From assembly GCA_048886185.1 (NCBI GenBank), contig JBHLKY010000031.1, positions 1 through 32,000 on the forward strand: a DNA stretch of 32,000 nt, in the 5' to 3' direction. A model generated the notes under the pieces. It worked only from the letters and a program-made list of their open reading frames with translations, made no database searches and was not told the origin of the DNA. Of this stretch, positions 148-30,768 are shown in pieces (position 1 is the stretch's first letter; every line of letters begins with the position of its first letter). The translations under genes and the position numbers were made by a program. The DNA is from Candidatus Hermodarchaeota archaeon (lineage in GTDB: Archaea > Asgardarchaeota > Heimdallarchaeia > Hodarchaeales > Hodarchaeaceae).

Positions 148-175
148 AACCAACGTTAATTGCACGAAAATCTTT
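148..175 (+). repeat. Intergenic CCAAC-motif copy 1 (attC R''-like half-site)
   Basis: aaccaac gttaa ttgcacga aaatcttt; matches the 28481 copy at 21 of 26 aligned positions. Confidence 0.6.
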
Positions 176-242
176 ATGTTTTCTTTATATAGTCTGAATA
201 TCATTTATGGTTAATGTACAAATATTTCGAAAAGATGTTTTC

Positions 243-971
243 TTAAACATTATTATCTGTAACAAGTTTTTTTGCCACAATTATCCCGATCAAAGGTGTC
301 ACAACTAGTTTCCAGAGTAGCATTAAAATCCAATATGGAAATGTAAGGTTAATGTTATTAGGAATCTGTAAAATATTTCCGAATAAACCATAGAATACAA
401 TAAGCAAATTGCCGAATAAAATTGCCAGACCATAAATCATTCTTCCATTAGAGACACGTTCAGATGGAAAAGGGGATTTGTCTTGAAGTACTAAGAAGAT
501 GAATAGAAAAAAAGATGCAATGAGGAAGAATAGAAAAAAAGATACATCATTTTCAGGATGAAGAGTCTGGAGACTAAATGAACCTATTGGATCAAACCCA
601 AAATTAAGGGGACCACGAAGATAAAAGGGAAAGCGCCATAAAATACTCGTTATAACCCACATTAAGCCGCATCCTGCAATTATGAAAGGAATTTTGTCTT
701 TTTGAGAGTTTTTCAAAACATTTTCCCCCTCTAGAACCGATATAATAGTAATTGTAGTAACCACTATTAAATCCAATAATAATGCAATGAATAAAGTCAC
801 ACTCAAGATGATGCGCAACGAGACATACAAATAAGATTCAAGAATCAGTAATAGATAACCACCAATGTACAATAATGCACTAAAAAGGAGTATTACATTT
901 TGACCAAGCCAGAGATACCAGATTCGCTTATACAGCTTTGATCGATTAATACTCCTAAAGATCTCTACCAC
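243..971 (-). CDS. Hypothetical polytopic membrane protein (~6 TM helices)
   Basis: 242-aa ORF, GTG start, alternating long hydrophobic stretches; no family motif recognised. Confidence 0.7.
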   Translation of the reverse strand: MVEIFRSINRSKLYKRIWYLWLGQNVILLFSALLYIGGYLLLILESYLYVSLRIILSVTLFIALLLDLIVVTTITIISVLEGENVLKNSQKDKIPFIIAGCGLMWVITSILWRFPFYLRGPLNFGFDPIGSFSLQTLHPENDVSFFLFFLIASFFLFIFLVLQDKSPFPSERVSNGRMIYGLAILFGNLLIVFYGLFGNILQIPNNINLTFPYWILMLLWKLVVTPLIGIIVAKKLVTDNNV

Positions 972-1193
972 TCCAAACAGGACATTTCCATCCTTTTATT
1001 GGCTTTATTAGGTCGGAAAAGCATTTTGTTGATTGAAAATCCTTATCGAAGGCATCACCATCGTGTTCCTGAGGTGCTAGCCATAACCCTTTAAATATAT
1101 CACCTTTTTCTACCTAATAAAGTTTTCTTGTTTTGAAACAGTTTGCGTTGAAGTATCCTATAATTAGTACAGAAATTATCCAGTCTATAAAAT

Positions 1194-1217
1194 ACCCAAC
1201 GTTAAATGATATTTTTA
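1194..1217 (+). repeat. Intergenic CCAAC-motif copy 2
   Basis: acccaac gttaa atgatatt ttta; exact RYYYAAC directly followed by GTTAAAT (GTTRRRY). Confidence 0.6.
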
Positions 1218-1515
1218 CGTATTTCTATGAAAAGGTTCCTAGCTAAGTGATTAGAATAAAACACAATACACACAATAGAAAAAGGTGGGAAGATGTTGGA
1301 ATTAAATGGTAGGGATCAATTCGGAAAGGAACACTTCGCATTGAGTAAAGAAAAAGATAATTTTTAATGCCCTTTAGAAATCTCATATTTAAGGTTAGTT
1401 CCTTTAAGGTAAATCGTGAGAAATTGATAATATTCACCTGAAGAGGATGAAAAGTACTCTTTTACCTTCATTAATTTTAAAAAGGACATGAATCGAATAC
1501 TGAAATTATGGAAAG

Positions 1516-3255
1516 ATGAACCAATTTAACATAATAATTCTTAGTATTCTTCTGCTAGGGCTTATTAATTGGACAACAGATTATAATAAGTCCACTACGG
1601 CTGCTTTCAGTCCAAATAAACTGATAAAGACACACACAACGCCGGTATTTAAAAGCACCAATAGCCAAATTTACACTCCCCATTCACCTATTGTAATTAC
1701 TGCTAATAGCCACTTTATATCGCAAGGATTTCTAGGGGCTGGGACCCTTGAAAATCCATATCGGATTGAACACCTCAATATCAGTGCATCAAGTGGCAAT
1801 TTGGTTCTTATTAGTGATACAACTGTTCATTTCCGCATTAGTGATATTTATCTGGATGGTTTGGTAACAGCAACTTCAGGGGTCTCTCTTTTTAACGTCC
1901 AACATGCCACAGTTGAAAATAATACCATAACTAGTAGTGAGGATGGAATAAGGATTAATAATGCTCCTAAAACTGTTATTCTCAACAACAACATCTATTC
2001 GAACACAAGGTTTGGTATCTTCCTTGATAAAACCGATAATTGTACCCTCTCATCCAATTCAGTTCACGATAACCTGATTAATGGAGTCCATCTGAAGGAC
2101 ACTTTGAATACGACCATCAATCATAATACCATCTACAATCACCACTATGGGGAGTACTCACAATGTGGTATTCTCCTTGATAACTCCTCTAATACTCTTA
2201 TCGCAAACAACTCAATTTTCAACAACCACTATGGGATAAAACTCCTTAATTCGGCAAACAATAATCAGGTTACCAACAATACCCTCTACGATAACCAACA
2301 ACAAGGGATCTGTCTTGAATATGCCTCTGGAAACACGCTTGTTTATAACAATATTTCCAACAATCTGTTCTATGGGATACTAATCACAGATGGCTCCAAT
2401 GATAATACCATTCAATATAATAGTTTTACAGGAAATAAAGCTGGAACAAACAACACCCAAGCATCAGATAATGGAATTAATAATGTCTTTAAGGGGAACT
2501 TTTGGGATGATTGGGCTCCTCACGATGACAATGATGATCTGATTATCGATATACCCTATCCGATAGAAGGGACTGCTAATAACTCGGATTCCTTTCCTCT
2601 TAGGGTGCTTTCTATTCAAGCGATTGAGAACATCAATAAAAGGCCTGACTATTCAGGAATTCTAATATTTCTCATTGTGGTTATGGTTGGGATTGTCATA
2701 AGCACTGGTGGGGGGTATTTTCTTTACACTTCGCGATTTAAAGAACCTGAAATTGAAGAGCCTTTTACTGACTTTGAGTCATCAGATCAGATTGATCGAC
2801 TCAAACCTCTTTATCATAAAATCGTTGTTGGTTTGGAGAATATTCAAGCACTTACGTTACCTGAACCTGCCACTGTTCCTCTGTTAAAACCCGCGGAAAC
2901 CATTACCCTGATTGAGTACTTCCCCGCTGACATTAAGAAGGATCTCCGCTCTGGGCTGAAGTGGCGAACGGTGCTAACTTTGATTGAAATTGCGTATCAG
3001 GATCCAAGTGATACTAATCCTGCACAATTAGCCCAAAATATGGATATCCCTCGATCTACTCTCTCTAAAGAAATCAAACGCCTCACTGACTTGGGGTATA
3101 TCGAATCGTTTATTACATTCAAAGTCTTACACGACGCCCGATTTCACAATTATATGATCACCTCCAAGGGCTTTAAACTCCTGTACATCTTGAAAGAAGC
3201 CTTCAAGCTTGCCATTGCCCGAATTAAAGAAAAACAAGGGGAAATTTATGCTTGA
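1516..3255 (+). CDS. Membrane-anchored protein: signal peptide, parallel beta-helix (NosD/CASH-like) ectodomain, TM helix, C-terminal winged-HTH (MarR-like)
   Basis: Repeated NxIxNNxxxGIxL motifs and a GNFWDD cap; TM segment ILIFLIVVMVGIVISTGGGYFLY; C-terminal PAQLAQNMDIPRSTLSKEIKRLTDLGYIE...DARFHNYMITSKG. Confidence 0.85.
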   Translation: MNQFNIIILSILLLGLINWTTDYNKSTTAAFSPNKLIKTHTTPVFKSTNSQIYTPHSPIVITANSHFISQGFLGAGTLENPYRIEHLNISASSGNLVLISDTTVHFRISDIYLDGLVTATSGVSLFNVQHATVENNTITSSEDGIRINNAPKTVILNNNIYSNTRFGIFLDKTDNCTLSSNSVHDNLINGVHLKDTLNTTINHNTIYNHHYGEYSQCGILLDNSSNTLIANNSIFNNHYGIKLLNSANNNQVTNNTLYDNQQQGICLEYASGNTLVYNNISNNLFYGILITDGSNDNTIQYNSFTGNKAGTNNTQASDNGINNVFKGNFWDDWAPHDDNDDLIIDIPYPIEGTANNSDSFPLRVLSIQAIENINKRPDYSGILIFLIVVMVGIVISTGGGYFLYTSRFKEPEIEEPFTDFESSDQIDRLKPLYHKIVVGLENIQALTLPEPATVPLLKPAETITLIEYFPADIKKDLRSGLKWRTVLTLIEIAYQDPSDTNPAQLAQNMDIPRSTLSKEIKRLTDLGYIESFITFKVLHDARFHNYMITSKGFKLLYILKEAFKLAIARIKEKQGEIYA

Positions 3256-3364
3256 TTTTTATTAGAATGGATGAATGTGGAATAATGTTGAATTTGGAAG
3301 AAATGACTAGCTTATTGGTTCAGTTGTCCAGAGGTAGATCCGTGATGGTTACCATATCAAAGGG

Positions 3365-3376
3365 GAAACTAGTTTC
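3365..3376. promoter_or_regulatory. Perfect 12-bp palindrome, candidate operator
   Basis: GAAACTAGTTTC is its own reverse complement; 77 bp upstream of the GTG at 3454. Confidence 0.3.
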
Positions 3377-3453
3377 TAAATGGAACCCATTCTCCTCTCT
3401 TTTAAACTTACCTTCCTAGGCAGAAAGCATATGTTTCAAGGAAGGAAAAATAA

Positions 3454-5850
3454 GTGAAACGCTACAAACCATTCTTCATAGTATTGAATGTTCTTCTATT
3501 CTTAGGATTAAGTTGTTGTACGCTGTCCTATGAACTTCAATCCATATTAAACGTGGATTTTCCCAATGACATGGCAGTTCGACCTGATAATCCTACTCAA
3601 AAAGTAACCGATACTCAATCATATATCGAACACGGCCCGATCACCATTACCTCTGATTTTCAATTAAATAATTCGGGATTTCCAGGCAATGGAACCATTG
3701 ATGATCCTATTTTGATAAAAAATTACTCTTTCACCCCTGAAAATGGTTTTCCCTTGATCCATATTAGTGGTACAACATTTTATTTCCGTATTACAAATTG
3801 TCTTCTTAACGGGTCATCCAATTCGCATTGGGGAATCCATCTAGACAATGTTATCAATGGCCATATTGAATCCAATGTTATTATCAATAATCCTTCTGAC
3901 GGTATTGGTATTTACTCCTCAGAGAATATTTCAATCAAAAACAACATAATTCACCATAACAGTTGGAATGGAATAAGACTTGAGTCTCTATCAAATTATA
4001 ACATCATAGCTAATAATACAGCATACAATAACGATGGGGAGGGTGTTTGGCTAGGAAGTTCTTCTAACAATAACTCCATCACCAATAATACGCTTTACAA
4101 TAATCGAAATGGCATTTATCTTGGAACTGATGGCTCTCCACCTCCTATTGGATGCCATAATAATACTATTGCAACCAATTTAATTTTTAACAACTTTAAC
4201 AATGGGATCGAACTTCAGGCTGAATCAGATGATAATATAATTACTAATAATACAGTTTTTAATAACGGGTTTAATGGAATAAATGTTGCCTCATCAAAGG
4301 ATAACAAAATTGAAAATAATACAATCCTCAATAATAGCAATGGAATTCTTTTTATTGATTCCCATGATAATGTTATCCATAATAACAGTGTTTTTGAAAA
4401 TATCTATGTGGGCATTCGAATAGGGGAGGGAGATGGAACTGGGAACAATTATAACAATAATATTTCAATGAACACTATATTCGATAATTCTGAAGCCGGG
4501 ATTGGGATTTATTCCAATAATCATCACAATAAAATCTATAACAACTCTATTTTTAACAATGGAGCAGGAATAGGATTTCAGTCAAACTCTAATAATAATA
4601 GCATCCAGGAAAATCTATTGTATAGTAACGGATTAGGGCTATATTTCTCCTCCTCCAACTATAACACAATCCAATTTAATGATTTTTCAGGTAATTCTGC
4701 ATCCGATAACAGCTTAGGCAATGTCTTTGAAAAGAATTATTGGAGTGATTGGACTGGAACAGATTCATACTCCATTGGTGGTTCAGCAGGAAATCGAGAT
4801 CTCTCTCCTTTGATGAATCCATATCATTTGTCAGGACTAATCATTACAGCACCAACAATTGAAAATTTGACACTAGCGGGTAATGTACTCATTCAATGGA
4901 ATGTTTTAGACACATTTGGTCATACTCTCACCTATTCCGTCTTTTACTCAACAGATGATGGAGGAAGTTGGACAACCCTCGCTTCGGGGTTAACTACAAC
5001 AAATTATACACTTGATACAACAACCATCGCTGATGGAACATCTATTCTACTCAAAATTCAGGCTGTTGATTCCATAGGGTTCGTTGCAAAAACTGTTTCT
5101 ACTGAGTCATTCCTTATTGCCAACACCCCTCATCGATTATCGTCTCCCAGTATTACCTCCCCTAGTCAGGATGACACCCTCACTGCTCAAATTGATATTT
5201 CCTGGATCCCTGTTATGGACACTTGGAACCATGAAGTATGCTACAGTCTTTATTATTCTGCTGATAACGGTACAACTTGGATTCAGTTAGGTACAGAGCT
5301 CACCACCACCAGTTATTCTTGGGATACCACTATCGTTACTGATGGGACAGAGTACTTGATTAAAGTCAATGCTTCTTGCACAGACGGATTAGTTGTGGAA
5401 GACATCTTAGAAGGTACATTCAATGTGCACAATGAGATTAGTACCCCTACCATCTCATCTCCTAAGAGCGGGGAAATCCTTAACGGTACCATCACCATCG
5501 AATGGAGCGCGTCCCTTGACCCATTAAGGCATTCCATCAAGTATACCGTTTATTATTCTTCGGATGATGGTGCGACTTGGACACAGCTAGCAAGTGGTCT
5601 TACAGTAACCAGTTACTCGTGGGATACCTCTACAGTTCCTAATGGCTTCAGTTATCGGATCAAAGTCATAGCTATCTGTTCCGAAGGGGTAACAGCAGAG
5701 GATATCACTCAGCCATTTACTATCCAGAATCCAATATCTACTTCTACAAGCTCTGACACAATCCCAAGCATGGGTTACCTCATGCTTCTCTTGTTATTAG
5801 TTACACTGATAGTGGTGAAGAAATGGAGGAAGACCAAACCAGCTACTTGA
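3454..5850 (+). CDS. Surface protein: beta-helix repeats, three Ig/FN3-like repeats, C-terminal TM anchor with basic tail
   Basis: GTG start after a GGAAGG-type RBS; beta-helix repeats ending in KNYWSDW; three repeats of P.I..P....L...I.I.W....D..H...Y..YYS.D.G.TW..L...L....Y..DT.....G; tail IPSMGYLMLLLLLVTLIVVKKWRK. Confidence 0.88.
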   Translation: MKRYKPFFIVLNVLLFLGLSCCTLSYELQSILNVDFPNDMAVRPDNPTQKVTDTQSYIEHGPITITSDFQLNNSGFPGNGTIDDPILIKNYSFTPENGFPLIHISGTTFYFRITNCLLNGSSNSHWGIHLDNVINGHIESNVIINNPSDGIGIYSSENISIKNNIIHHNSWNGIRLESLSNYNIIANNTAYNNDGEGVWLGSSSNNNSITNNTLYNNRNGIYLGTDGSPPPIGCHNNTIATNLIFNNFNNGIELQAESDDNIITNNTVFNNGFNGINVASSKDNKIENNTILNNSNGILFIDSHDNVIHNNSVFENIYVGIRIGEGDGTGNNYNNNISMNTIFDNSEAGIGIYSNNHHNKIYNNSIFNNGAGIGFQSNSNNNSIQENLLYSNGLGLYFSSSNYNTIQFNDFSGNSASDNSLGNVFEKNYWSDWTGTDSYSIGGSAGNRDLSPLMNPYHLSGLIITAPTIENLTLAGNVLIQWNVLDTFGHTLTYSVFYSTDDGGSWTTLASGLTTTNYTLDTTTIADGTSILLKIQAVDSIGFVAKTVSTESFLIANTPHRLSSPSITSPSQDDTLTAQIDISWIPVMDTWNHEVCYSLYYSADNGTTWIQLGTELTTTSYSWDTTIVTDGTEYLIKVNASCTDGLVVEDILEGTFNVHNEISTPTISSPKSGEILNGTITIEWSASLDPLRHSIKYTVYYSSDDGATWTQLASGLTVTSYSWDTSTVPNGFSYRIKVIAICSEGVTAEDITQPFTIQNPISTSTSSDTIPSMGYLMLLLLLVTLIVVKKWRKTKPAT
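3598..3711 (+). repeat. 114-bp segment shared with 6031..6144
   Basis: 12 mismatches in 114 nt by manual alignment, mostly synonymous; 35-nt exact core ggcccgatcaccattacctctgattttcaattaaa. Confidence 0.9.
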
Positions 5851-5880
5851 TATTTGTACAAGTTAAAGAAAGAAGGTGAA

Positions 5881-8298
5881 ATGACATTGAAACAATCGAA
5901 ATTAGTAATGATTACAATTCTAATAATTCTTCTATTTGCCTTGAATAGTTGTATGGTAGGACTAGAGTTTCAATTCACTACAGAAAATGAATTTTTGAAT
6001 ACAAAAACATTCCAACCTAGATCATGTCTACAAAAGGTGACTGGTACTCAATCGTATATTGAACGTGGCCCGATCACCATTACCTCTGATTTTCAATTAA
6101 ACAATTCGGGGTTTCCAGGGAATGGAACCATTGATGATCCGATTCGGATTGAAGGATATAATATCACTTATTCGAGTGGAACGTTAATCTATATTCGGGA
6201 TACAACCTTCTACTTCGAGATTACGAATAATTATCTTAATGGGTTGTCAAGTGCTTCGAGGGGTATCTATCTTTACAATGTTATCCATGGAACCATTAGA
6301 AATAACATAATTTCTTCATGTGGGCAAGGGATTGAGTTTTGGTACTCTAATGACAACGTAATTATCAATAATACCGTATTCAACAATAACTATAACGGAG
6401 TCAAGTTTCATTTCACTTCTAATAATAATAAAATCATAAACAATACTATATACGATAATATCCAAGAAAGTGGAATTTGGCTTGAAGCATCAAGTAACGT
6501 AACCATTACTGATAATATTGTCTATATGAATGATGATAATGGAATTAAATTGGATTCATGTCATAACTGTAGAATTATTAATAATAGCGTATATAATAAT
6601 TCTTTTGTTGGCATTAGAATAGACCCCTCCTCCTCAAAAAACAATTCAGTTATTAAAAATGAAATTTATAATAATTCTGAGGAAGGTCTTAGTCTTTATT
6701 TTGCCGAGAATACTACTGTACGCCTTAATAAAATTTATGGTAATGGTTGGAACGGGATAGATCTTGGATCTTCCAAGTTTAACACTCTAAGTTCTAACAC
6801 AATTATTAATAACAACGAAAATGGAATAAGTCTATGGGGAGAGTCGAACACTAATACAATTTGCAATAACACAGTTTATAACAATAATTTGAATGGCATA
6901 AATGTTGATTCATCCAATAATAATACAATCTATAATAATACAGTTAATCTTAACACCCAAAATGGGATTCATCTCAATAATGCAAATGATAACACTATTG
7001 CGGATAACAGGATTCACGATAATTATTTCACTGGAATTTATCTTCATAACTCAGACAATAATACGCTGTTCAACAATACTTTGACGAATAACTATTTTAA
7101 TTTGATTAAAACAGAAACTTTGTTAACACCAGTCCAAGAGGGGATTTATGATTTCACTGTAACCATCCAGAACATGAGCGTTCCAGTTTCAGCTAATTCT
7201 GTGCCATTTTCCTGGGAAAATGTCTATTATGAATTACCCCTTGAAAACGGTTTTGGAACTCTGGATGAGAACGTTGTTGATCTAGATCTGAACGGGGATA
7301 GTGATAAAATAGATCTATTTGATGTTACATGGTTCTATAATGAAACTCGCTCATGGGATGCTATAATCAACGATGGTTTTCAAGACATTCACGCTTACTC
7401 CATCTATGAGGGACTACCTGAAGATCCAGGGAGGTATCGAACATATTACATTGACGGAGAATCAAAGCTATTCCAGCTAGGGACTAAAATGCATTCGCTT
7501 TATATGGTAAATAAAGATCTTGCTGTTTTCGGATTAGAGGACGTGATTATTCTTAACCACCCAAGTCCAAACTTTGTGTTTGTTACGTTTTCACCAGTTA
7601 TCGATGTAACAGACTTTCACATTAATAATGCACCTATTGAGGTGAATTACACTCGAAGTGTTACTCTACCACAGTTTGGGTGGGATTTGACGTGCTATAT
7701 TATCCCAGCTCAAACAATCGGGTCAGCAGAGGTAATAACATTTTCCTGTATGATATTAACCCAAGAAACCATGATTAATAATGTAGGGTTCCGTATGAAC
7801 TGGTCACCAGATGGTAATACTAGGTCCCAATGGGACTTTTTTACCCAAGAAATCTCACTTATTGGTGATAACACTCCACCAACAGTGATAATAAATAAAC
7901 CACTCCCGCAAACATATGCAACTGACACGATCACTGTAGCGTTATCTGGGGATGCAGATAATTATTGGTACTATATTGAGTCAGTAGACAGCCAGAATCA
8001 GACTTGGACTACCAGTGTGGGTCGAATGCTTACTGACGGCACTTACACACTCCACGTATATGGAAACGACTCTGTGGGGAATGTTGCTCACGTCTTTGTT
8101 ACATTTACAATTGAAACTCCAGTTCCTACCACTCTTCCTATAACAACAACTACCACGACTACTACACCTAGTTCTACAACTACAACCTCAGCAACAACCA
8201 TTCCTACAAAAACTGTTACTCCTGGCTGGAATGTTCTGCTCTTACTTCTTACCTTATTTCTTATGTTACCACTAAGACATCGTAAGAAGAAATCTTAA
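5881..8298 (+). CDS. Surface protein: beta-helix repeats, unknown middle domain, Ig-like domain, Thr-rich linker, PGW-type C-terminal anchor
   Basis: ORF track starts at 5854, but ATG 5881 follows GAAGGTGA, so I prefer it; TTTTTTTPSSTTTTS linker; tail TPGWNVLLLLLTLFLMLPLRHRKKKS. Confidence 0.88.
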   Translation: MTLKQSKLVMITILIILLFALNSCMVGLEFQFTTENEFLNTKTFQPRSCLQKVTGTQSYIERGPITITSDFQLNNSGFPGNGTIDDPIRIEGYNITYSSGTLIYIRDTTFYFEITNNYLNGLSSASRGIYLYNVIHGTIRNNIISSCGQGIEFWYSNDNVIINNTVFNNNYNGVKFHFTSNNNKIINNTIYDNIQESGIWLEASSNVTITDNIVYMNDDNGIKLDSCHNCRIINNSVYNNSFVGIRIDPSSSKNNSVIKNEIYNNSEEGLSLYFAENTTVRLNKIYGNGWNGIDLGSSKFNTLSSNTIINNNENGISLWGESNTNTICNNTVYNNNLNGINVDSSNNNTIYNNTVNLNTQNGIHLNNANDNTIADNRIHDNYFTGIYLHNSDNNTLFNNTLTNNYFNLIKTETLLTPVQEGIYDFTVTIQNMSVPVSANSVPFSWENVYYELPLENGFGTLDENVVDLDLNGDSDKIDLFDVTWFYNETRSWDAIINDGFQDIHAYSIYEGLPEDPGRYRTYYIDGESKLFQLGTKMHSLYMVNKDLAVFGLEDVIILNHPSPNFVFVTFSPVIDVTDFHINNAPIEVNYTRSVTLPQFGWDLTCYIIPAQTIGSAEVITFSCMILTQETMINNVGFRMNWSPDGNTRSQWDFFTQEISLIGDNTPPTVIINKPLPQTYATDTITVALSGDADNYWYYIESVDSQNQTWTTSVGRMLTDGTYTLHVYGNDSVGNVAHVFVTFTIETPVPTTLPITTTTTTTTPSSTTTTSATTIPTKTVTPGWNVLLLLLTLFLMLPLRHRKKKS
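6031..6144 (+). repeat. 114-bp segment shared with 3598..3711
   Basis: Encodes QKVTxTQSYIExGPITITSDFQLNNSGFPGNGTIDDPI in both genes. Confidence 0.9.
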
Positions 8299-8323
8299 AC
8301 TTTCTCATACTCCCCTTTACTCC

Positions 8324-8332
8324 TTTTTTTTT
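8324..8332 (+). terminator. Oligo-T tract, candidate archaeal terminator of the beta-helix cluster
   Basis: T9 within a pyrimidine-rich tract 25 bp after the stop at 8298. Confidence 0.45.
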
Positions 8333-8399
8333 AGAAGTCTGTAAGTTAACCAAAGTTATAATACATTATACGTATCAACATACGTATTTTTGATAACCT

Positions 8400-8431
8400 A
8401 TCCAACGCTAACTACAATTTTTATATAAAAA
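8400..8431 (+). repeat. Intergenic CCAAC-motif copy 3
   Basis: atccaac gctaa ctacaa tttttatataaaaa; tail resembles the copies at 28781 and 30743. Confidence 0.6.
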
Positions 8432-8609
8432 TGAATGTGAATTAGTTTTAATCTGAGAACTTTTGGTTGGTCTCGAAAAGAGATACTTCTCGCTACAAGA
8501 AGTTTAAACATGATAGCCATTGTATCATATGTTTATTATAATCTCATACTTAAAATTTATATGATGATTACTAGAATCACGAAGAAGAACGAAGTAGAAG
8601 GAATATCCA

Positions 8610-9458
8610 TTGAAATTTATAACACTTAACAACGGAATTAAAATGCCCATATTGGGATTTGGGGTTTACCAGATAAAAGACCCTAAATTATGTGAACAGT
8701 GTGTTAGAACAGCGATTGATGTTGGATACCGATTAATTGATACCGCTTTTGCATATGGAAATGAAAACGCGGTTGGAAAAGCCGTTCAGTCAAGCTCAAT
8801 TCCCCGAGATGAACTATTCATAACTACTAAACTCTGGAGTCCATATGCGAATTATAATAATACCAAACAACAGTTTGAAAAATCATTAAACAGGTTAGAA
8901 ATGGATTATGTTGATCTCTATCTTATTCATCAACCTTTTGGTGATGTGTATGGATCCTGGTGTGCAATGGAAGAACTTTACGAGGAAGGAAAAATCAGAG
9001 CTATTGGTGTTAGCAATTTTTATCCTGATCGTTTAATTGATTTTATACTTCATAATAATATAACTCCTGCAGTTAACCAGGTTGAGACTCATCCTTTTAA
9101 CCAACAGATAGAGAGTGAGAAAATAATGAAGGAATATAATGTTCAGATTGAGTCCTGGGGTCCATTTGCTGAGGGAAGAAACAACTTGTTCCAAAACGAG
9201 GTACTAGCTTCAATTGGTGACAAGTATAATAAATCAAATGCCCAAGTGACTTTGCGATGGCTTATCCAGAGAGGCATAATTGCAATTCCTAAATCAGTTC
9301 ACAAGGAGAGGATAATTGAGAATTTCAACGTTTTTGATTTTGAATTGAACAAGGCAGATATGAGTAAAATTACATCCCTAGATCAGAAAAAGAGTGCCTT
9401 TTTTGATCATAGAGACCCTGAATGGGTGAAAATGTTATCAAATGCTAGACGGGATTAG
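8610..9458 (+). CDS. Aldo/keto reductase (2,5-diketo-D-gluconate reductase-like)
   Basis: [80 protein letters not shown]: the full AKR catalytic and NADPH-binding motif set; TTG start. Confidence 0.95.
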
Positions 9459-9543
9459 CACAAGTGGGTATTTTAAGACCAAATATGAATAAATACAAGT
9501 TAAACGAGAACATAGAGATAAAAATATAGAGGTACATTAACCA

Positions 9544-9559
9544 ATCCAACGTTAAACGA
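9544..9559 (+). repeat. Intergenic CCAAC-motif copy 4
   Basis: atccaac gttaaacga; exact RYYYAAC directly followed by GTTAAAC (GTTRRRY), 85 bp after the AKR stop. Confidence 0.6.
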
Positions 9560-9624
9560 CATTAGAATCAAAAAACCATCTAAGAAGAAAAAGAGTGAAA
9601 AAACTCCCTCTTCATTCAAGGCTT

Positions 9625-10869: not shown

Positions 10870-10875
10870 AATTAA

Positions 10876-11859: not shown

Positions 11860-11897
11860 TTTTAATCACTTTTTTGGTTGTGTTTGTTTATTATCGA

Positions 11898-11912
11898 AAA
11901 GTTTAAAACTTT
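11898..11912. promoter_or_regulatory. 7-1-7 inverted repeat in divergent promoter, overlapping a TTTAAA TATA-like element
   Basis: AAAGTTT-A-AAACTTT between the divergent SDR and TrmB genes; a partial copy aaagtttaaa lies at 11923. Confidence 0.35.
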
Positions 11913-12813: not shown

Positions 12814-12841
12814 AATGCATGGTATTAACTTTTCTTTACCT

Positions 12842-22759: not shown

Positions 22760-25700
22760 TTTCTTTTCCTCCGTCTCAAATTGAAGTAAGATCTGAACTT
22801 CGTGAAAAACAGTATGAATATTGCAGTAGTGGTGAGTTCAAATCCAGGGGCCCTTCCGGTTTTGGGTACTACTATGAGTGTAAAATCATCTATCGCATAG
22901 TTTCCTGACATGTCATAAACAATAAGACGATATTGATACGTATCAAGGGGAAGAGCTGTTATAACAATTTCAATAGATGTTCCTGACCATGATCCTGACT
23001 GTTCTATATCTCCATTCGGTAACATGATCAATTCATAATGGGAGGGTGTTTCGTCAGTTACTTGCCATGTTAGTGTAATATTGATATTTTCTTCAACTGT
23101 AATATCTGGTAGATGAACGAGGATGGGTGGATCGGTGTCTCCCTGAACCGTGACACTTACTGACCGTGATGCATTATTCCCAAATGTATCCCATGCAATT
23201 ATAATGATATTATAATTACCTACAACCAGCCCATCTAAACAAAACTCTACTTTTATATTAGGAGAGGTCCAGGTATGTTCAACAATGATAGTATCCGTGC
23301 CGATTGAGATCAAATAACCTTGTGGGTGCACATCAAATAAATAGGCGATAATATAATTATTCAAAGTTCCATATGTAAACACAACGTCTTGTATTTGTGA
23401 AATAGTTGGTGGAAAAGTATCAGCTTCACCGGTAGGGATTACTTCAACAATTGCTATACCAGATGCGCTATGTCCTGCCACATCCCATACAGTTAAGATG
23501 AATTCCCAGGTACCAAGAGGTAACGAGGTATAATGGTATTGAATGATTCCTGAAACCCAAGAACTTTTTTCATAGATGATTGAACCATTTCTAGTGATCA
23601 TATATCGATCTGGATATTTATCATCGACTTCCCAAATAATTGTTCCAGCAGTATTTTCAGCAATAATAGATTTGGCTGGTTGAGAAACTGTTGGAGGAGT
23701 TACATCAGGAGCTTCTGGATTAACCGTGACTATTACTGAACTAGAAGCTGTATTGCTTGCTAGGTCATATAAAGTTAGAGTCACGTTCCATGTACCAATG
23801 GGGAGATGATCAACAGAATAGGAAATATTCTCTCCATGCCAGGGATTGAATAGTTCCTCAGTATCATTTATAAGAATTGTATAAGCAAACGGATGATTAT
23901 CAAGACAGATCCAATGAAGAATATGACCAGTTGTCCCTTTTTCAAATTCTAAAGAACCAGGTGGCATGTTAACAGGGGATTCAGTGTCTGGGACAGCTTC
24001 AGTCACATTAACCCATACTACGTCGTAAACCGAGTTCCCTGCTTCATCAAAGAGTGTACAATTATACTTATATAATCCTGTGGCGACTCCATCAAGAGAA
24101 ATTACAATATCATTTCCAATCCAAGCCTTGTCATAAATTAGAGTCATATTCTTTCGGACAGATGCCCACCAGGGTGTCCGATCATCTGATCCAGTCCAAA
24201 TAATTGAATATCCAATGGATCCTTCTTCAAAGCTTACATCATTTGGTGAGGAAATGGATGGAGGTGTTGTATCAGGCGCGGAAGGGAGTACCCTAATCCA
24301 TACTTCATCAGAAGAAGTTCTCCCATAAGCATTCTCTACTACACAAGTAAAGTTATGAACACCTTCTTCTAATCCATCAAGCCAAACTAATACATAATTT
24401 GTCCAAGACCCCGTTCTATAAATTGTCCCATTCCGATAGACCGAATAATTTGCTGGGAAAAGATCTGTAACAGACCAAAGAATAGAATAACCTGTATCAC
24501 CATGAAATATGCTAAAATCGCTGGGGCTTGTGATGCTTGGAACACTTAATAAGCAGAAGAAGGATCTTTGTTCAGAAGTGTACCAATTATCTAAAATATC
24601 CGTTATATAAAGTTGTATCGTATGACTACCAGTAGCGGGAAGTACAATGCTTGTTTTTCCTTCGATTGGTATATAACTCGAATTATCTAATGAATAACCG
24701 ATCCAAGATAAATCTGCAGGTTCACTCCCCTCATTTACTGCCTCGAACCTGTTATCTCCGATGTTATAATTTGGATCCCATGAATAACCAAAAGCATCAA
24801 AGTATAAATTTGATTGGACTGAATCACCTGTTGATACATGGATTCCTGAACTACTCCCATGATACTGGAATTCTGCATCTGGTGATTCATAAATCAAGGT
24901 ACTTCCATCTGAATCATAAAGTCTTACCCGATAGTGATGCGGAGCTAATCCTGCGTAAGTGCCATCATCTGAGAAATCGATCGATAATCGGTACCACTTA
25001 TTTTCAGAGAAAGTAATACCTGTATCTATAGATGTATTGCCATCAAAATACTCAAATTCGTTATATTCATCAGCAACACGAACAGTATAATCATATGGAG
25101 AGGCTGCTTTCAACAATCCCCAACTAACTCGCCAATTAGTTCCTGGAGCTTCATGTAATACCCAAAATTCGAGTGTTCCTGATGTAATGACATTATTAAA
25201 GAAACCATCGGCAACAAGTATAGGGCCAGCATCATTATCCTTGCAATACAGAACTTTTGAATGGAAATTTCCATAAGCATCTGTTTTAGAATTAAGAACC
25301 TGTATATCAACTGATGTGGGTTGGATACTACCACCCTGCCACCAGCCCCAATTATCAGGTTCAGTACCAACCGAAACATCTTCAAATCCTTCAGAAGCAG
25401 GATAATAACCTGCCCAGTCTGTTCTAGATTTCGTAGGTGGTTCAAAATCTAGTAGTAATCCTTCTTTTAAATTATCTCCGATATTATAACAAGGATCCCA
25501 AGAATATCCTAGCGCATCTAAATAAAAGTCATGAAGTGGATTTCCAGATTGAAATTCTATCCCATGAGATCGAAGATCAAAACCATAAATGTCAATTGGG
25601 GAGCCTTCAAATAGAAATGCGTAGCCACTACCATACCAGGTGTTATTGAGCTGGATCTGCCATCCACCTTGAGTAATGTCGAAGTCTACCCGAATATGGA

Positions 25701-28221
25701 GCCAAGTGTCTTTTGGAAAGACATTAGTTGCAATGGTAGTTTTAGTTGTATATGGTCCATGGTATAAAGCCTTATCCTCAATTCCAAATTCGATATTGCC
25801 ACCAGATCCAAGGAGTTTGAACTTAGTTGCATCCAATCCACTATCAGAGTCTTTGTGAAACCAAAATTCGACTGTTCCAATGGTTGCACTTGATGCGAAA
25901 TTCTTAGTCATGCCGACTCTATCTTTCCCAAAAGTACCTCTATCTTTCCTCAATTCTACAACATTCTTGTGGCCATAGAATTCTTCAAGAACTCTCAATT
26001 TGCCATATTGTCCTGGATAATATACGCTCCATCCAGACGGAGGATGCCCTGAAATTGTTATATCTGAATAGGGAACACCAACATCATCTTCAAAGCCATA
26101 AGAGGCTGGATAGTAACCACTCATTGGAGCTGAATAGATTTTATCCTCAGGTGAAATAAGATTAATAGTTTGATTAACAACAGTCACAGCTGGTTCTTGT
26201 TCTACACATTTTCTAACGAATACCCAATCGACCTGAATACTGGGGGGAGCTAGACCATCATAAGCACAATCATGGTAAGTGCGTGCTCGTAAAGCTCGAC
26301 CTACACTCCCAACTGTATCCACAGACCTAACTGCACCACTACACCCCCAACCAGGGCCATAATATGTTGCGTGGGTCAAAATTCTTATCCCTAGAGGCAT
26401 ATCAGGAATACATGTGCTATTAGTGTGAGTAATAATTGAAGTACCGTTATTATACTGAACTAAAGAATCAGATATCCACCGAATATCCCTTGTATCCCAA
26501 GTTCGCATGGCAAGAGCATTATCTACTACGAGACTTGCAGTCGCAGCTTTAGTTTGTATCTGATGTCCACGACCTAATGAACCAAAATTAATGGAATTAT
26601 TCGTATATGCATTATAAGGGGCTGGAGGTTTAGTTAGGTAAAAATCATTGAAGCCTATTACAGCACCTCCATTTCGTTCATTAACATCATCTATATATGT
26701 AGTGACTGTTAATACCCCTCCTGAAACAATTGTTGAACTGTATTGATCATTATCGGTTATCCATTTGCTTGTATTCACAGTAGATCCTTCAAAATCATCA
26801 AAGAAAATGAACGTGTCATCTCCATCACTTTCAGACGAAGCAGATGGATTACCATAATACATATACAACGAAGAGGTACCTGGTGAAGGGATCTTAACCC
26901 AAATCATTGATACTCCTGTAGGATTCCACGTTTCAATCCAATAACTTAAGGGATTGGTATATATATCATAGAAACGGAGATCACGCCCATCAAAGTTAGC
27001 GAGTGAATAGTCGAAATTATTGGGATTAAGATTTACTTTAATTTGATAATCAGCTTCAGGAGTCGCTGGATCTACCCTGATAAGGCTTACATGGATGTTA
27101 TCAACTCTTGCTAATGGTTCTTGTTCTACACATTTTCTAACGAATACCCAATCGACCTGAATACTGGGGGGAGCTAGACCATCATAAGCACAATCATGGT
27201 AAGTGCGTGCTCGTAAAGCTCGACCTACACTCCCAACTGTATCCACAGACCTAACTGCACCACTACACCCCCAACCAGGGCCATAATATGTTGCGTGGGT
27301 CAAAATTCTTATCCCTAGAGGCATATCAGGAATACATGTGCTATTAGTGTGAGTAATAATTGAAGTACCGTTATTATACTGAACTAAAGAATCAGATATC
27401 CACCGAATATCCCTTGTATCCCAAGTTCGCATGGCAAGAGCATTATCTACTACGAGACTTGCAGTCGCAGCTTTAGTTTGTATCTGATGTCCACGACCTA
27501 ATGAACCAAAATTAATGGAATTATTCGTATATGCATTATAAGGGGCTGGAGGTTTAGTTAGGTAAAAATCATTGAAGCCTATTACAGCACCTCCATTTCG
27601 TTCATTAACATCATCTATATATGTAGTGACTGTTAATACCCCTCCTGAAACAATTGTTGAACTGTATTGATCATTATCGGTTGTCCATTTGCTTGTATTC
27701 ACAGCAGATCCTTCAAAATCATCAAAGAAAATGAATGTGGCATCTCCATCACTTTCAGACATAGCAGTAGGATTCCCATAATACATGTGGATCGTGGATG
27801 TACCTACATTAGGCACCTTGACCCAAATTATCGATTTTCCAGCAGGATTCCAACTTTCAATCCAGTAACTTAAAGGAGTATTTAACGGGTCATAAAAGCG
27901 TAGATCACTCCCATCTGGTTTAGCTTTGGAATAATTAAAACTATAAGGATTAAGTATGACCTTAACTTGGTAGTTTGGTTCAGGAGTAACAGGATCTAAT
28001 GTTAAATTACTCTCATAACTCCATCCCAAGGGGATATCAGTGATGCTTGCTAAAATATTGTCCTCATGTCTATCATTAGGTGTAAGATTAATCAGAGTGT
28101 TGTTACCTACATTCTCTAAATATATGTTAATACTCAATGTTCCAGAGTAAACAAATAGCACAATTATCCCTATAACAATACTATACCTTAGAACAACTTT
28201 TCTTGGTTTTATCCAATTCAT
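22756..28221 (-). CDS. 1821-aa surface protein: two tandem DUF2341-containing units, two GYYPAS...GYSWDP modules, six Ig-like repeats, PGF-type C-terminal anchor
   Basis: DGSDLRFYD...LSYWIESW...IWVKVP...IHMYYGNP.A.SESDGD.TFIFFDDFEG (DUF2341 hallmark) occurs twice; tail APGFELTTTAIFILFF...RRRKRK; GGGAG RBS. Confidence 0.9.
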   Translation of the reverse strand: MNWIKPRKVVLRYSIVIGIIVLFVYSGTLSINIYLENVGNNTLINLTPNDRHEDNILASITDIPLGWSYESNLTLDPVTPEPNYQVKVILNPYSFNYSKAKPDGSDLRFYDPLNTPLSYWIESWNPAGKSIIWVKVPNVGTSTIHMYYGNPTAMSESDGDATFIFFDDFEGSAVNTSKWTTDNDQYSSTIVSGGVLTVTTYIDDVNERNGGAVIGFNDFYLTKPPAPYNAYTNNSINFGSLGRGHQIQTKAATASLVVDNALAMRTWDTRDIRWISDSLVQYNNGTSIITHTNSTCIPDMPLGIRILTHATYYGPGWGCSGAVRSVDTVGSVGRALRARTYHDCAYDGLAPPSIQVDWVFVRKCVEQEPLARVDNIHVSLIRVDPATPEADYQIKVNLNPNNFDYSLANFDGRDLRFYDIYTNPLSYWIETWNPTGVSMIWVKIPSPGTSSLYMYYGNPSASSESDGDDTFIFFDDFEGSTVNTSKWITDNDQYSSTIVSGGVLTVTTYIDDVNERNGGAVIGFNDFYLTKPPAPYNAYTNNSINFGSLGRGHQIQTKAATASLVVDNALAMRTWDTRDIRWISDSLVQYNNGTSIITHTNSTCIPDMPLGIRILTHATYYGPGWGCSGAVRSVDTVGSVGRALRARTYHDCAYDGLAPPSIQVDWVFVRKCVEQEPAVTVVNQTINLISPEDKIYSAPMSGYYPASYGFEDDVGVPYSDITISGHPPSGWSVYYPGQYGKLRVLEEFYGHKNVVELRKDRGTFGKDRVGMTKNFASSATIGTVEFWFHKDSDSGLDATKFKLLGSGGNIEFGIEDKALYHGPYTTKTTIATNVFPKDTWLHIRVDFDITQGGWQIQLNNTWYGSGYAFLFEGSPIDIYGFDLRSHGIEFQSGNPLHDFYLDALGYSWDPCYNIGDNLKEGLLLDFEPPTKSRTDWAGYYPASEGFEDVSVGTEPDNWGWWQGGSIQPTSVDIQVLNSKTDAYGNFHSKVLYCKDNDAGPILVADGFFNNVITSGTLEFWVLHEAPGTNWRVSWGLLKAASPYDYTVRVADEYNEFEYFDGNTSIDTGITFSENKWYRLSIDFSDDGTYAGLAPHHYRVRLYDSDGSTLIYESPDAEFQYHGSSSGIHVSTGDSVQSNLYFDAFGYSWDPNYNIGDNRFEAVNEGSEPADLSWIGYSLDNSSYIPIEGKTSIVLPATGSHTIQLYITDILDNWYTSEQRSFFCLLSVPSITSPSDFSIFHGDTGYSILWSVTDLFPANYSVYRNGTIYRTGSWTNYVLVWLDGLEEGVHNFTCVVENAYGRTSSDEVWIRVLPSAPDTTPPSISSPNDVSFEEGSIGYSIIWTGSDDRTPWWASVRKNMTLIYDKAWIGNDIVISLDGVATGLYKYNCTLFDEAGNSVYDVVWVNVTEAVPDTESPVNMPPGSLEFEKGTTGHILHWICLDNHPFAYTILINDTEELFNPWHGENISYSVDHLPIGTWNVTLTLYDLASNTASSSVIVTVNPEAPDVTPPTVSQPAKSIIAENTAGTIIWEVDDKYPDRYMITRNGSIIYEKSSWVSGIIQYHYTSLPLGTWEFILTVWDVAGHSASGIAIVEVIPTGEADTFPPTISQIQDVVFTYGTLNNYIIAYLFDVHPQGYLISIGTDTIIVEHTWTSPNIKVEFCLDGLVVGNYNIIIIAWDTFGNNASRSVSVTVQGDTDPPILVHLPDITVEENINITLTWQVTDETPSHYELIMLPNGDIEQSGSWSGTSIEIVITALPLDTYQYRLIVYDMSGNYAIDDFTLIVVPKTGRAPGFELTTTAIFILFFTKFRSYFNLRRRKRK
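26191..26758 (-). repeat. 568-bp perfect intragenic repeat, copy 2
   Basis: Identical base by base to 27115..27682 (offset 924 bp = 308 codons) by manual comparison. Confidence 0.93.
27115..27682 (-). repeat. 568-bp perfect intragenic repeat, copy 1
   Basis: Identical to 26191..26758; homology continues without indels but diverged to 27998 (vs 27074). Confidence 0.93.
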
Positions 28222-28480
28222 GGTTTCTGACTCCCACTTTTAACATGATAAATTCCCTATATGGAATTTAATTTCTATAATGACTAAATTTCAGGTGTGT
28301 GAGGATGTACATGCTTATAGATTCATTGTATTAGCTCTACCACCCTGATCTATTCTGCATCGGTTAAGTCATCAAAAATCTGTATATGATCATGAATTAT
28401 TTATTTATTTTCGCTGTACTACCAGGGTCATATTATATTTTTCTTAATTAAAAAAGAAATAAAAGAAATAAATGGCTAGA

Positions 28481-28508
28481 ATCCAACAGTAATTCTACAA
28501 AAATCTTT
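28481..28508 (+). repeat. Intergenic CCAAC-motif copy 7
   Basis: atccaac agtaa ttctacaa aaatcttt; 21/26 identical to the copy at 148. Confidence 0.55.
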
Positions 28509-28570
28509 TTATTTTATTTACCTAATCGTGCAATGTAGAGGAGAATTTTAAATTAAGCTCAGCAAAGTTT

Positions 28571-28741
28571 CACAGGACATTAACGTTAGTAATTTCAACC
28601 TTTTTTCTTGGGTTATCATTTAATTGGATTGCCTATCAAACCAAGTCCATAAGGTGGGCTGTTGTTATCCATGTTTTAATTTCATTTTTTGCTTTCGGAA
28701 AACCCCATATTACTATTCTCTATGATTTATTATTTGCTTAA
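28571..28741 (+). pseudogene. 3' remnant of a second CPBP-family protease gene
   Basis: Start-less frame ...LVISTFFLGLSFNWIAYQTKSIRWAVVIHVLISFF...* resembles the CPBP C-terminal G..F......T.S.......H motif; open only from 28526. Confidence 0.6.
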
Positions 28742-28780
28742 ATTAAGGATACCGATACTTCTATGTAAAATGTGTTACTT

Positions 28781-28815
28781 AACCAACGCTATTTGCATAA
28801 TTTTTATATGAAAAA
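28781..28815 (+). repeat. Intergenic CCAAC-motif copy 8
   Basis: aaccaac gctat ttgcataa tttttatatgaaaaa, 39 bp after the stop of the CPBP remnant. Confidence 0.6.
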
Positions 28816-28950
28816 ACAGACAAGAAAGTATATATGTCCTAACAGGGAAAGAGCTTCCGAAGAGGACTAATACATGATTAGTAAATATTTAAATATTAGG
28901 TTTAACAACCCCGTTATGCAACATTGACTTTCAATGACCACTCTCCTTAA

Positions 28951-29320
28951 AATTCTATAAACTATAAAGGGAACTTAATACAAGAGAAAGGTTTTGACTG
29001 GTGTGAACCTGTTTTTCAAATTCAGAACCTTTTTATTTGTGATGAAAATGAAGATTTAAACTTGATCCTTTTCATTCAGATTGCTACAAATCCAACTTCG
29101 GGATTAAAAGCTTCAACGTCAGTCTACTTTAACATTTACCATGAAATTATTTAGTGTGATTTATCAAGTCCTAATTTCTTTTATGTATGAGATCTCAATT
29201 AAATATGGAATAATCGATAAAACTCCTGTTCTTGTCATTGATAGAGTATTAACATGGCTGAATAATAACAGTTTCTATGAAAAAATCGCTGAACTAATAG
29301 GAAATGATTTCCATTCTTAA
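28951..29320 (+). pseudogene. Decayed ORF of an unknown protein
   Basis: NYKGNLIQEKGFDWCEPVFQIQNLFICDE...YHEII* continuing in another frame as YEISIKYGIIDKTPVLVIDRVLTWL...DFHS*; no start codon. Confidence 0.4.
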
Positions 29321-29386
29321 AAAGGGGTCTTATTACGGAATTAGTAATCCACTCGTGTTGATTGGGGTCTGTTTTAGTTTTTAGAA

Positions 29387-29675
29387 ATGATCTTTTTTTT
29401 GGCAGGTATACTGTTTGGCCCCTGGTTGAAGAATTAGGAATTATTTTGATGCAGATCTAACACAGCTTTTTGTCTGAGAAATGGAGAGATGAAAGTGGCA
29501 GAGCGTTTCTATTCATCCAAAGCTTTGAACCATCAGAAGAGGAAGAGGAAGCATTTTGAGATTCGAGATCCAAGCAATCATCATTAAGACCATCCTTTGG
29601 TATTCCCTCTTGGGGGTTTTGATTGGCGGATTAGATGTAGGAATATTATTCTTAGTAGACCCCTCTTTCCTTTAA
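29387..29675 (+). pseudogene. Decayed membrane-protein ORF
   Basis: MIFFLAGILFGPWLKN*, then a shifted frame with three in-frame TGA ending in IIIKTILWYSLLGVLIGGLDVGILFLVDPSFL*. Confidence 0.4.
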
Positions 29676-29778
29676 TCACTCCTGATTCCCCTTGAAAAAT
29701 AAAAAAAGATTAGAGAAACTCTCTAATCGCATTGGCCTCTATTATGAAGTGTATATAACGCTCTTAAATAGATATAAG

Positions 29779-30600
29779 TCAAGTAAGATCCGCTTCTATA
29801 CCAATCCAGTTCATATCACCCGAGGGAGAACCATCACCCATGATATAAGTATGTGTCATTCGAGTATAATAACTCCAGAAAAAGTAGTACTTGAAGTATA
29901 TTATGACTTTAAATCTTACCTTCTCAATGTAAAGCCAATTTTGTTGCCAGCGTCCTCCACCAAAATCCTCATACCAGTACTTGCCATTGTCATACAATCT
30001 AGCCATATCATTATCCACTGCTAATTTAAAGAGAGCAGTAAATCTGTGGTCTTCATCGCTATTAGAACTTCTAAACCAACCAATGTAACGATAATCTCCG
30101 CTGACAGAATTCTTAGAAGCCTCCGAAGCTGTTGGGTCACCTGTGCAGCTCCAACTAAAACTGTAACCATATACCGTATATCCTGCAGTCCATGTCCATT
30201 GACGTGTCCCTGAAGCCTCATATTCATACGACCCCCATTTTATCATATTCTCTGGGATTGGATCCCAATAATAATGGGTCCAAGTTTGCGGGGGTTGCCC
30301 TGGATAGTCGACATACCTCATTTTATGGCGATAATATGCAGTGACATACACTTTCACCTCGAAACGATCTTCTTCATTTGCGTAGACGGTCAAACCATAT
30401 GACGTAGTCCCACCCTGTGCGTCATCTACATACACTACATCTGCTTGGCACCAGACCTTGGAGTTACTAATTCCAGAACCTAGGGTCTCAAACCCATATC
30501 GTTCGATGTATCCTAGTGCTGGTGTGATCTGTCCAAAGAAAAAAATGAAAGAAATCAATGCAGTGCACAATATCAATTTGATTCTTCGCTCCAAAATCAT
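29779..30600 (-). CDS. Secreted Tyr/Trp-rich, beta-strand-like protein of unknown function
   Basis: AGGAGGA RBS, signal peptide ending PALG, about 29 Tyr and 13 Trp in 273 aa by my count, no TM anchor. Confidence 0.8.
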   Translation of the reverse strand: MILERRIKLILCTALISFIFFFGQITPALGYIERYGFETLGSGISNSKVWCQADVVYVDDAQGGTTSYGLTVYANEEDRFEVKVYVTAYYRHKMRYVDYPGQPPQTWTHYYWDPIPENMIKWGSYEYEASGTRQWTWTAGYTVYGYSFSWSCTGDPTASEASKNSVSGDYRYIGWFRSSNSDEDHRFTALFKLAVDNDMARLYDNGKYWYEDFGGGRWQQNWLYIEKVRFKVIIYFKYYFFWSYYTRMTHTYIMGDGSPSGDMNWIGIEADLT

Positions 30601-30742
30601 TCCTCCTTTTGATATCCCTATTTATAGGGTAATTTGGAGTTCTTCGTGATTACTCTTAACTTTTGAGGACTCTCAAAAGTGCAAATTACATGGAAAAAAA
30701 TGTATTTTTTTTTACTCTAACGATATATAAAAACATTAACTT

Positions 30743-30768
30743 ACCCAACGCTATGTGAATAATTTTTA
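30743..30768 (+). repeat. Intergenic CCAAC-motif copy 9
   Basis: acccaac gctat gtgaataa ttttta; close to the copy at 28781. Confidence 0.6.

Follow-up and report, generated by a model that had tools for sequence, protein, structure and literature searches.

Co-oriented, genus-specific core sites at the boundaries of interchangeable DNA modules in flexible islands of a Hodarchaeales genome

The Hodarchaeales are the Asgard order closest to eukaryotes. Their genomes are large and rich in acquired genes, and the uptake and shuffling of genes in this group bears on eukaryogenesis. Here we analyse a 32-kb stretch of one such genome (positions 1 to 32,000 of contig JBHLKY010000031.1, assembly GCA_048886185.1; hereafter the window), in which the short motif CCAAC recurs between genes. 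The initial annotation, made from the sequence alone, described nine co-oriented intergenic copies at module junctions and proposed that they might be decayed attC sites of an integron-like cassette array. What are these sites: points at which DNA segments are inserted and exchanged, transcriptional signals, the edges of small repeats, or the remains of an integron? Our answer, in which we place about even confidence, is that the motif is the core of a site of site-specific insertion or recombination of DNA segments in the flexible islands of one Hodarchaeales genus. In the following, G000 denotes this genome, C-numbers its contigs, G-numbers other genomes, and L-numbers stretches from these or others.

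On the + strand of the window, CCAAC begins at positions 150, 1196, 8402, 9546, 12844, 16359, 28483, 28783 and 30745, in each case two bases after the coordinate originally assigned to a site that is itself present. Eight of the nine copies are followed by G and six by GYTA, as had been described. The absence of reverse copies from intergenic DNA holds for the hexamer CCAACG and for longer forms only, because the pentamer CCAAC does occur there in reverse, at 1295, 8466 and 13011. All eight + strand copies of CCAACG in the window are intergenic, and both - strand copies (16209 and 18176) are coding. By raw count, the hexamer is only marginally enriched (10 copies against 5.3 in shuffled sequences, with 3 of 100 shuffles reaching 10). 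The longer CCAACGYTA occurs 46 times in the 4.84-Mb genome, and since seven of these occurrences, six of them intergenic and on the + strand, lie within this one window, the enrichment is local rather than genome-wide.

Intergenic CCAACG contexts yielded the extended consensus TA-N-CCAACG-WTA-NNY-GACA. For the site search, a 26-nt position weight matrix replaced a 46-nt nhmmer profile, which was too insensitive and mostly found its own seeds again. At 12 bits or more, the matrix produced 141 matches in the genome and 100 in the reversed-genome control; by this control, matches below ~17 bits are mostly noise, and only those at 17 bits or more were trusted. At this cut-off, 40 sites are intergenic and one is coding, with intergenic DNA making up ~16% of the genome. 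Six window sites, all on the + strand, have scores that span 21.9-27.7: TAA CCAACG TTA (core site 1, 147-158; 21.9), TAC CCAACG TTA (core site 2, 1193-1204; 24.1), TAT CCAACG CTA (core site 3, 8399-8410; 23.7), AAT CCAACG TTA (core site 4, 27.7; 9543-9605 including its right arm, which is of class (i) and reads AACGACATTAGAA..., in a convergent intergenic region), TAA CCAACG CTA (28780-28791; 22.9, with an AT palindrome after 8 nt) and TAC CCAACG CTA (30742-30753; 24.1). A degenerate seventh site, CCAACA at 28483-28540 (+) including its right arm, carries an R04-like arm that resembles those of site 150, C7:408 and C7:1017.

The two remaining copies of CCAACG on this strand, at 12844-12849 and 16359-16364, are probably chance occurrences, because they score below 12 bits and because relatives read differently at the homologous places: G013 and G007 have CCAGGTG at the former, and G020 and G011 have no core at the latter, with homology beginning ~45 nt further on. 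Seven of the nine co-oriented sites (150, 1196, 8402, 9546, 28483, 28783 and 30745) are thus borne out, and these are members of a genuine family that numbers ~40-55 intergenic sites in this Hodarchaeales genome. Two members had been overlooked: CCAAAG at 8350-8355, which is a degenerate core, and C31:39432, which lies outside the window.

Beyond this genome, a 16-nt pattern, CCAACGWTMRAYGACA, matches 30 times in 17 of the 22 genomes of the genus (this one counted) and once in the reversed control. It is present in 16 of the 21 congeners, gives no match in two other genomes of the order, and gives single matches in 2 of 60 genomes elsewhere in the class. A further 19 matches on viral contigs were dismissed as chance, all being in coding-like contexts without the typical flanks. 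CCAACG is the invariant centre of a ~20-nt, asymmetric and genus-specific site. In a dyad scan of 51 non-redundant sites, only TA-N-C/CAAC/G-N-TA and the palindrome AACGTT rose above background; a 7-bp inverted repeat around an 8-nt centre, at which C39:14411 and C16:117767 had hinted, failed across the family. A search of the available literature found no paper describing this site family.

The sites are grouped in ~20 places of the genome, and neighbouring sites point in the same direction in 18 of 19 pairs (p = 8e-5). Within 3 kb of a contig end lie 21 of the 40 sites, against 8.8% expected, as is to be anticipated for islands that interrupt assemblies because they are repeated or variable, and the sites explain many of the assembly breaks in the genome bins of this genus. 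On the single-contig chromosome of G010 (CP070695.1), 100-N gaps flank the site islands at 736.9 kb and at 3.073, 3.092 and 3.109 Mb, and these islands were therefore hard to assemble there too. The 16 strict sites on that chromosome, which we also considered for a replication polarity of the kind marked by KOPS (FtsK-orienting polar sequences), are clustered, and their strand switches several times.

In several comparisons, the homology between copies of a module breaks at these sites. Window 1193-8410 has a core-to-core copy in C52:1390-8428, 65-90% identical, and the homology stops at window position 8410; the flanks are unrelated on both sides. The start of the same module, which encodes beta-helix proteins, is found in seven copies in five genomes (three copies in this genome, four in other species), and these can be aligned exactly from TA-N-CCAACG, at core site 2, onwards (alignment A3); their upstream arms belong to at least five unrelated classes. 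At core site 1, homology to C40 and C7 ends or starts. The comparison is less clean for the adjacent reductase gene, of which a 96% identical copy in G008 matches only 8443-9464, although a degenerate core, CCAATG, with another arm stands ahead of it there. Many contigs from metagenomes diverge from the window exactly at 155-159 and at 8410.

One junction is found in both a filled and an empty state. At C40:22737 and in G019:C237, a left arm of class (a), the core and a right arm termed R01 are directly joined. In the window, arm (a) with its core (150) and the core (1196) with R01 are separated by 1046 nt flanked by direct core repeats. Such a pair of states is the signature of an insertion or a deletion at the core. 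The window is also variable within the population: in four metagenomes, the depth of 130-6096 is ~0.4 times that of 8530-20000, and the island is therefore polymorphic. The description of this locus as a cassette-like array of co-oriented junction sites stands, in that it is a flexible island in which breakpoints of homology and of gene content coincide with cores (C52, C40, C7 and the beta-helix copies), as the comparison of syntenic regions suggested by the initial annotation was meant to reveal.

Around the core, the arms assort freely. Left class (b) occurs with 12 right classes, left class (a) with eight, and right class (i) follows no fewer than seven different classes of left arm. Arm (a), which contains a perfect 9-bp hairpin, recurs at C7:224885, in three places of G010 and three times in C40; in the window (105-149, +), it comprises the boxes TGGAGTCA (118-125) and TGAAGTCA (129-136), a T-run, and GAGTATAA abutting the core. 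Arms of class (d) were considered as 3' ends of genes, a proposal that was rejected because they share only ~25-45 nt and no long open reading frame (ORF). The modules between cores hold one to several genes on either strand and vary in size between 47 nt and more than 10 kb; they seem to bring promoters of their own. In the window, they include the 1046-nt module (156-1195), consisting of an R04 unit (156 to ~215), a gene at 243-971 (-) for a 242-aa protein without Pfam family, and a unique left arm; the beta-helix module (1205-8349, +), with the R01 arm, a 24-aa ORF (1293-1367) and three Beta_helix/NosD genes (Pfam) for surface proteins (1516-3255, 3454-5850 and 5854-8298); and the aldo-keto reductase module (8411-9542, +; gene 8610-9458, Pfam).

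At the lower end of the size range, core-to-core units of 52-53 nt occur singly, in tandem and in either order. Unit (a) contains the boxes TGAAGTCA or TGACTTCA, and unit (c) contains ATACGTAT twice. In the window, unit (c) occupies 8350-8401 (+) and consists of the CCAAAG at its start, the hairpin ATACGTAT-CAAC-ATACGTAT (8368-8387), a T-run and a 14-nt spacer. In G010, an intact core precedes and another follows this 52-nt unit (L024:11379 to 11431), and at L025:4522 to 4470 the unit forms a chain with unit (a). The tandem unit joints reappear in contigs from four sediment metagenomes in which this genome is represented. A further unit of ~60 nt, R04 (window 156-215; L075:742-860 and L077:70-250, in G008 and G019), has a core at its start and, at its end, an inverted degenerate core copy together with the (i) arm (the reverse complement of CAAAGGTTAAACGACAT), and thus possesses imperfect terminal inverted repeats.

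These short units raise the question whether (a), (c) and R04 (~47-60 nt) are selfish non-autonomous repeats, akin to miniature inverted-repeat transposable elements (MITEs), repetitive extragenic palindromes (REPs) or Correia elements, which insert at the core and duplicate it, so that the larger 'cassettes' would be ordinary genes caught between independent insertions. The units indeed lie strictly in intergenic DNA between directly repeated cores, stand in tandem and in varying order, carry hairpins and recur across congeners, and R04 ends in the inverted degenerate core and (i) arm just described. However, terminal inverted repeats are missing from units (a) and (c), the core is also where module-specific arms such as R01 begin, and the gene-bearing 1046-nt segment behaves as the short units do. 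Moreover, a search of the 96% complete genome for HUH and TnpB families (PF01797, PF07282, PF04986, PF14214) revealed no Y1 or Y2 HUH transposase, TnpB or Helitron-like gene, with the limit that no control genome matched the Y2/Helitron families PF04986 and PF14214 either. We therefore consider it unlikely that selfish repeats account for the array.

A second recurring feature is a hairpin in the left arm. Perfect stems of at least 8 bp are present in 21% of left arms, compared with 5% of right arms and 0.9% of intergenic 44-mers drawn at random. Their geometry is constant, with a stem of 8-9 bp, a loop of 4 nt and 12-14 nt to the core, and the stems themselves are of four or five different sequences (ATGACTTCA/TGAAGTCAT, and ATACGTAT, TTATATAA and TTAATTAA, each twice). 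This variation represents covariation that preserves the structure, or paired palindromic boxes, at a fixed distance from the core, and the hairpin may have a part in whatever takes place there.

The hairpin is not that of an attC site. When four core-to-core or arm-plus-core stretches were folded as single-stranded DNA, on both strands, only the local 8-bp hairpin formed; there was no stem closing R'' onto R', and z-scores ranged from +0.4 to -3.0. This bears on the original proposal of eroded or collapsed attC sites, in other words an integrase-less integron array (CALIN). The letters invite it: exact RYYYAAC abuts exact GTTRRRY at 1194 (ACCCAAC/GTTAAAT) and at 9544 (ATCCAAC/GTTAAAC), as had been noted letter for letter, and the sites are co-oriented and lie 3' of genes. 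In addition, archaeal integrons have been described (Ghaly et al., 2022; PMC9668308), with a reported enrichment of integrons in Asgard genome bins. Yet besides the missing closing stem, the ~20-nt core is conserved across the genus rather than eroded, the modules are multi-gene and use both strands, and the genome-wide search for tyrosine recombinases detected three PF00589 genes, with no integron integrase (IntI) among them, as the initial annotation had found for the window. That the array is a decayed integron is thus very improbable.

The arms also resemble transcriptional signals, and a regulatory or boundary role therefore stays a rival. In this case, a DNA-binding protein peculiar to the lineage would recognise the core, which could serve as an operator, as an upstream activating site or as a boundary element, and a block of terminator-like left arm, core and promoter-like right arm would mark the edges of transcription units and spread together with genes by ordinary recombination. 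Arms (a) and (c) each consist of a hairpin followed by T5, TTTATATA-like boxes are found in arm (b) and in many right arms, and in the beta-helix module and the recombinase operon of G010 (see below) a TATA-like box follows 8-12 nt after the core, with a start within ~50-100 nt. The gene downstream is co-oriented at 22 of 33 sites. All four gene-orientation contexts are nevertheless represented at these 33 sites: relative to site direction, 12 sites lie between divergent genes, 10 between tandem, seven between convergent and four between reverse-tandem genes. The orientation of the core tracks the island, not the neighbouring genes. The next co-oriented start codon lies 100-1100 nt downstream of the core, the median distance from a co-oriented upstream stop is ~150 nt, and the core has no fixed position relative to the TATA box and start of the co-oriented gene. 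The likely reductase promoter near 8555, ~150 nt downstream of core 8402, is shared with a haplotype that has no core. Nor would a binding site explain the short core-to-core units or the fixed hairpin-core spacing with interchangeable stems. We thus give a DNA-binding protein of this kind a minor share of the probability, comparable to that of selfish repeats, and in the form of a regulatory motif spread genome-wide, as the initial annotation had put it, the proposal is contradicted by the small number and clustering of the sites.

Insertion or exchange at the core is favoured by the co-orientation, the assortment of arms, the core-bounded modules and the filled and empty junction. Under this reading, segments would be inserted, deleted and exchanged at the ~20-nt core, a module extending from its own right arm just after one core to its own left arm just before the next, so that each would be flanked by direct core repeats and all cores of an island would share one direction. 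The reaction would most probably be a conservative site-specific recombination between two cores, either of a circular module with a chromosomal core or of two chromosomal cores. Unrelated sites are identical over only ~10-20 nt, which is short for homologous recombination, and the conservation of the core across species argues for recognition by a protein, possibly a dedicated enzyme.

A candidate for this enzyme is an Xer-like tyrosine recombinase acting with a small protein encoded upstream, both adjoining cores in this genome and in G010. Two of the three tyrosine recombinase genes of the genome (C27:43050-43943 and C70:2-736, the latter cut by a contig end) lie 50-105 nt from a high-scoring site. 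Each is preceded by a homologous ORF of 129-145 aa, and each pair adjoins one core. In G010, the same two-gene operon stands between two co-oriented cores, L024:7204 (CCAACA) and 8879. The site-adjacent recombinase falls short of both the TIGR02249 integron-integrase model (59.8 bits, cut-off 265) and the XerA model (106 bits, cut-off 220), and is Xer-like rather than an integron integrase. Its family is small, with 17 proteins at E < 1e-20. Long contigs that carry it also encode the small ORF, many small unannotated genes, a STIV_B116-like gene and a GIY-YIG nuclease gene, and are virus- or plasmid-like. The association between recombinase and site is statistical, not exclusive. The small upstream protein (L009:699-1088 (-), L011:3651-4088 (+)) belongs to no Pfam family, accompanies the recombinase on every contig examined and, by eye, has the look of a ribbon-helix-helix protein at its N-terminus.

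Several observations weigh against this reading. With respect to the enzyme, homologues of the recombinase (E < 1e-20) are found in only 2 of 21 congeners, far fewer than have the motif, and site and recombinase operon are arranged differently in the two genomes, divergently in G000 and co-directionally in G010. L035, a 4-kb contig that carries a 90% identical homologue, contains no site, and the matrix detects no core on the virus- or plasmid-like stretches L033, L034 and L036-L038, which encode 44-47% identical recombinases. With respect to the site, the core dyad is weak, unlike in classical tyrosine-recombinase core sites, and the arms' likeness to terminators (hairpin and T5) and TATA boxes has been set out above. 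With respect to the breakpoints, a second population haplotype (contig C68), in which 563 nt of other, core-less DNA replaces window 146-8529, has its breakpoints 4 nt ahead of core 150 and 120 nt past core 8402, and some cargo genes have homologues in relatives without a nearby core (G010 L026, G008 L074). Finally, the metagenome contigs contain neither an excision circle nor a clean core-to-core deletion allele. Four joints had been considered as excision products and were set aside: 159->1366 and 8405->9587 have short sides and probably stem from paralogous loci, and 3013->14883 and 5880->10363 have sides of 21 nt or less.

Were exchange at the core confirmed, a defined junction site together with a candidate recombinase would turn the flexible islands of Asgard archaea into an assayable mechanism.

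Some further features of the window and of the site neighbourhoods deserve mention. The 24-aa ORF at 1293-1367 (+), MLELNGRDQFGKEHFALSKEKDNF, is located upstream of the first beta-helix gene, has a GGTGG ribosome-binding motif; C52, C40, G019 and G014 conserve this ORF, whose product could be a leader peptide or a small protein. The protein encoded by that first gene (1516-3255, +) is beta-helix/NosD-like, and its C-terminal part (residues 479-530) matches the winged-helix families MarR_2/HTH_24, a combination that is unusual in a presumed surface protein. The gene at 22756-28221 (-) encodes a DUF2341/Ig-like surface protein of 1821 aa with an internal 884-nt tandem duplication (26191-27074 and 27115-27998; 92% identity). 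Next to it lies a 1.5-kb stretch (28222-29778) that holds two of the sites; ORFs of at least 60 aa are absent from both of its strands, and it has neither an Rfam match nor a homologue among the 21 congeners. The last core of the window (30742-30753) lies between two divergent genes, at 30885-31097 (+, HTH_3) and at 29779-30600 (-), the latter encoding a 273-aa protein without Pfam family or homologue among the congeners. Six paralogous metallo-beta-lactamase-fold genes lie within 2.5 kb of sites (C27, C28, C31, C39 and C7, including window 31168-31965), and aldo-keto reductase and epimerase paralogues likewise recur beside sites.

How, then, does this system compare with those already known? 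In integrons, attC sites fold into an imperfect hairpin of ~55-140 nt in which R'' pairs with R' and L'' with L'. The present sites resemble them in that they are co-oriented and partition an array of unrelated accessory genes, lie nearer to the stop of the upstream gene than to the next start, have a hairpin in the 3' part of the module, occur as hybrids with independently assorting halves and match the RYYYAAC/GTTRRRY letters. By contrast, the hairpin here is short (8-9 bp) and located 12-14 nt outside the core, R'' is not paired with R', and the two core halves abut; there is no IntI-type integrase, the site is restricted to one genus, and the modules range from 47 nt to more than 10 kb, with genes on either strand and apparent promoters of their own.

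A second parallel are the dif modules of Acinetobacter plasmids, in which pdif (XerC/XerD) sites, 28-bp dyads of 11-6-11 architecture, are inverted around the module (PMC6449649, PMC13141974). Both cases involve discrete accessory modules that are bounded by short recombination sites and shuffled between contexts, in both a recombinase of the Xer family is suspected, and in both the mechanism has been inferred mainly from comparative genomics. However, the sites described here are asymmetric, with a weak dyad and without 11-6-11 arms, are arranged as direct repeats and are chromosomal and archaeal.

The third parallel is the tandem accretion of integrative elements and their cis-mobilisable remnants, which leaves direct repeats of the att core between the inserts, some of which have an integrase next to att. 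Here, too, direct core repeats separate the inserts and only some cores have an integrase beside them. Unlike such arrays, with their one attachment site, the present system has many islands in each genome. Its inserts are mostly single ordinary genes, or units of as little as 47 nt, and most modules lack an integrase. Moreover, we found no conserved host anchor gene, and no tRNA either in the window, where Rfam and tRNA scans gave no match, or in the 80 kb around the G010 island. Large and small subunit rRNA genes were not found in G000, G010, G015 or G007, and universal rRNA motifs are absent from the assembly. Lastly, IS200/IS605, REP/RAYT, IS91 and Helitron elements have ends with a subterminal hairpin whose distance from the short conserved cleavage or target sequence is small and constant, with strict orientation and possible tandem arrangement; the hairpin at a fixed 12-14 nt before a short conserved core recalls them, although no HUH enzyme or TnpB was detected in this genome.

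In its organisation, the system is integron-like and also recalls dif modules and the accretion at att sites, but it departs from each in the defining features, as it has neither the attC fold nor the IntI of integrons, neither the 11-6-11 dyad nor the inverted sites of dif modules, and no anchor in the host. A tentative possibility, which we hold to be less probable than recombination at the core as such and more probable than either selfish repeats or a DNA-binding protein, is that the Hodarchaeales possess a gene-cassette system of their own, in which a genus-specific 20-nt core and a hairpin specified by its structure would be used by an Xer-like integrase of mobile-element origin and its small partner, as an independent functional analogue of the integron. 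Such a combination of hairpin and core would add a new type of site to the known site-specific recombination systems.

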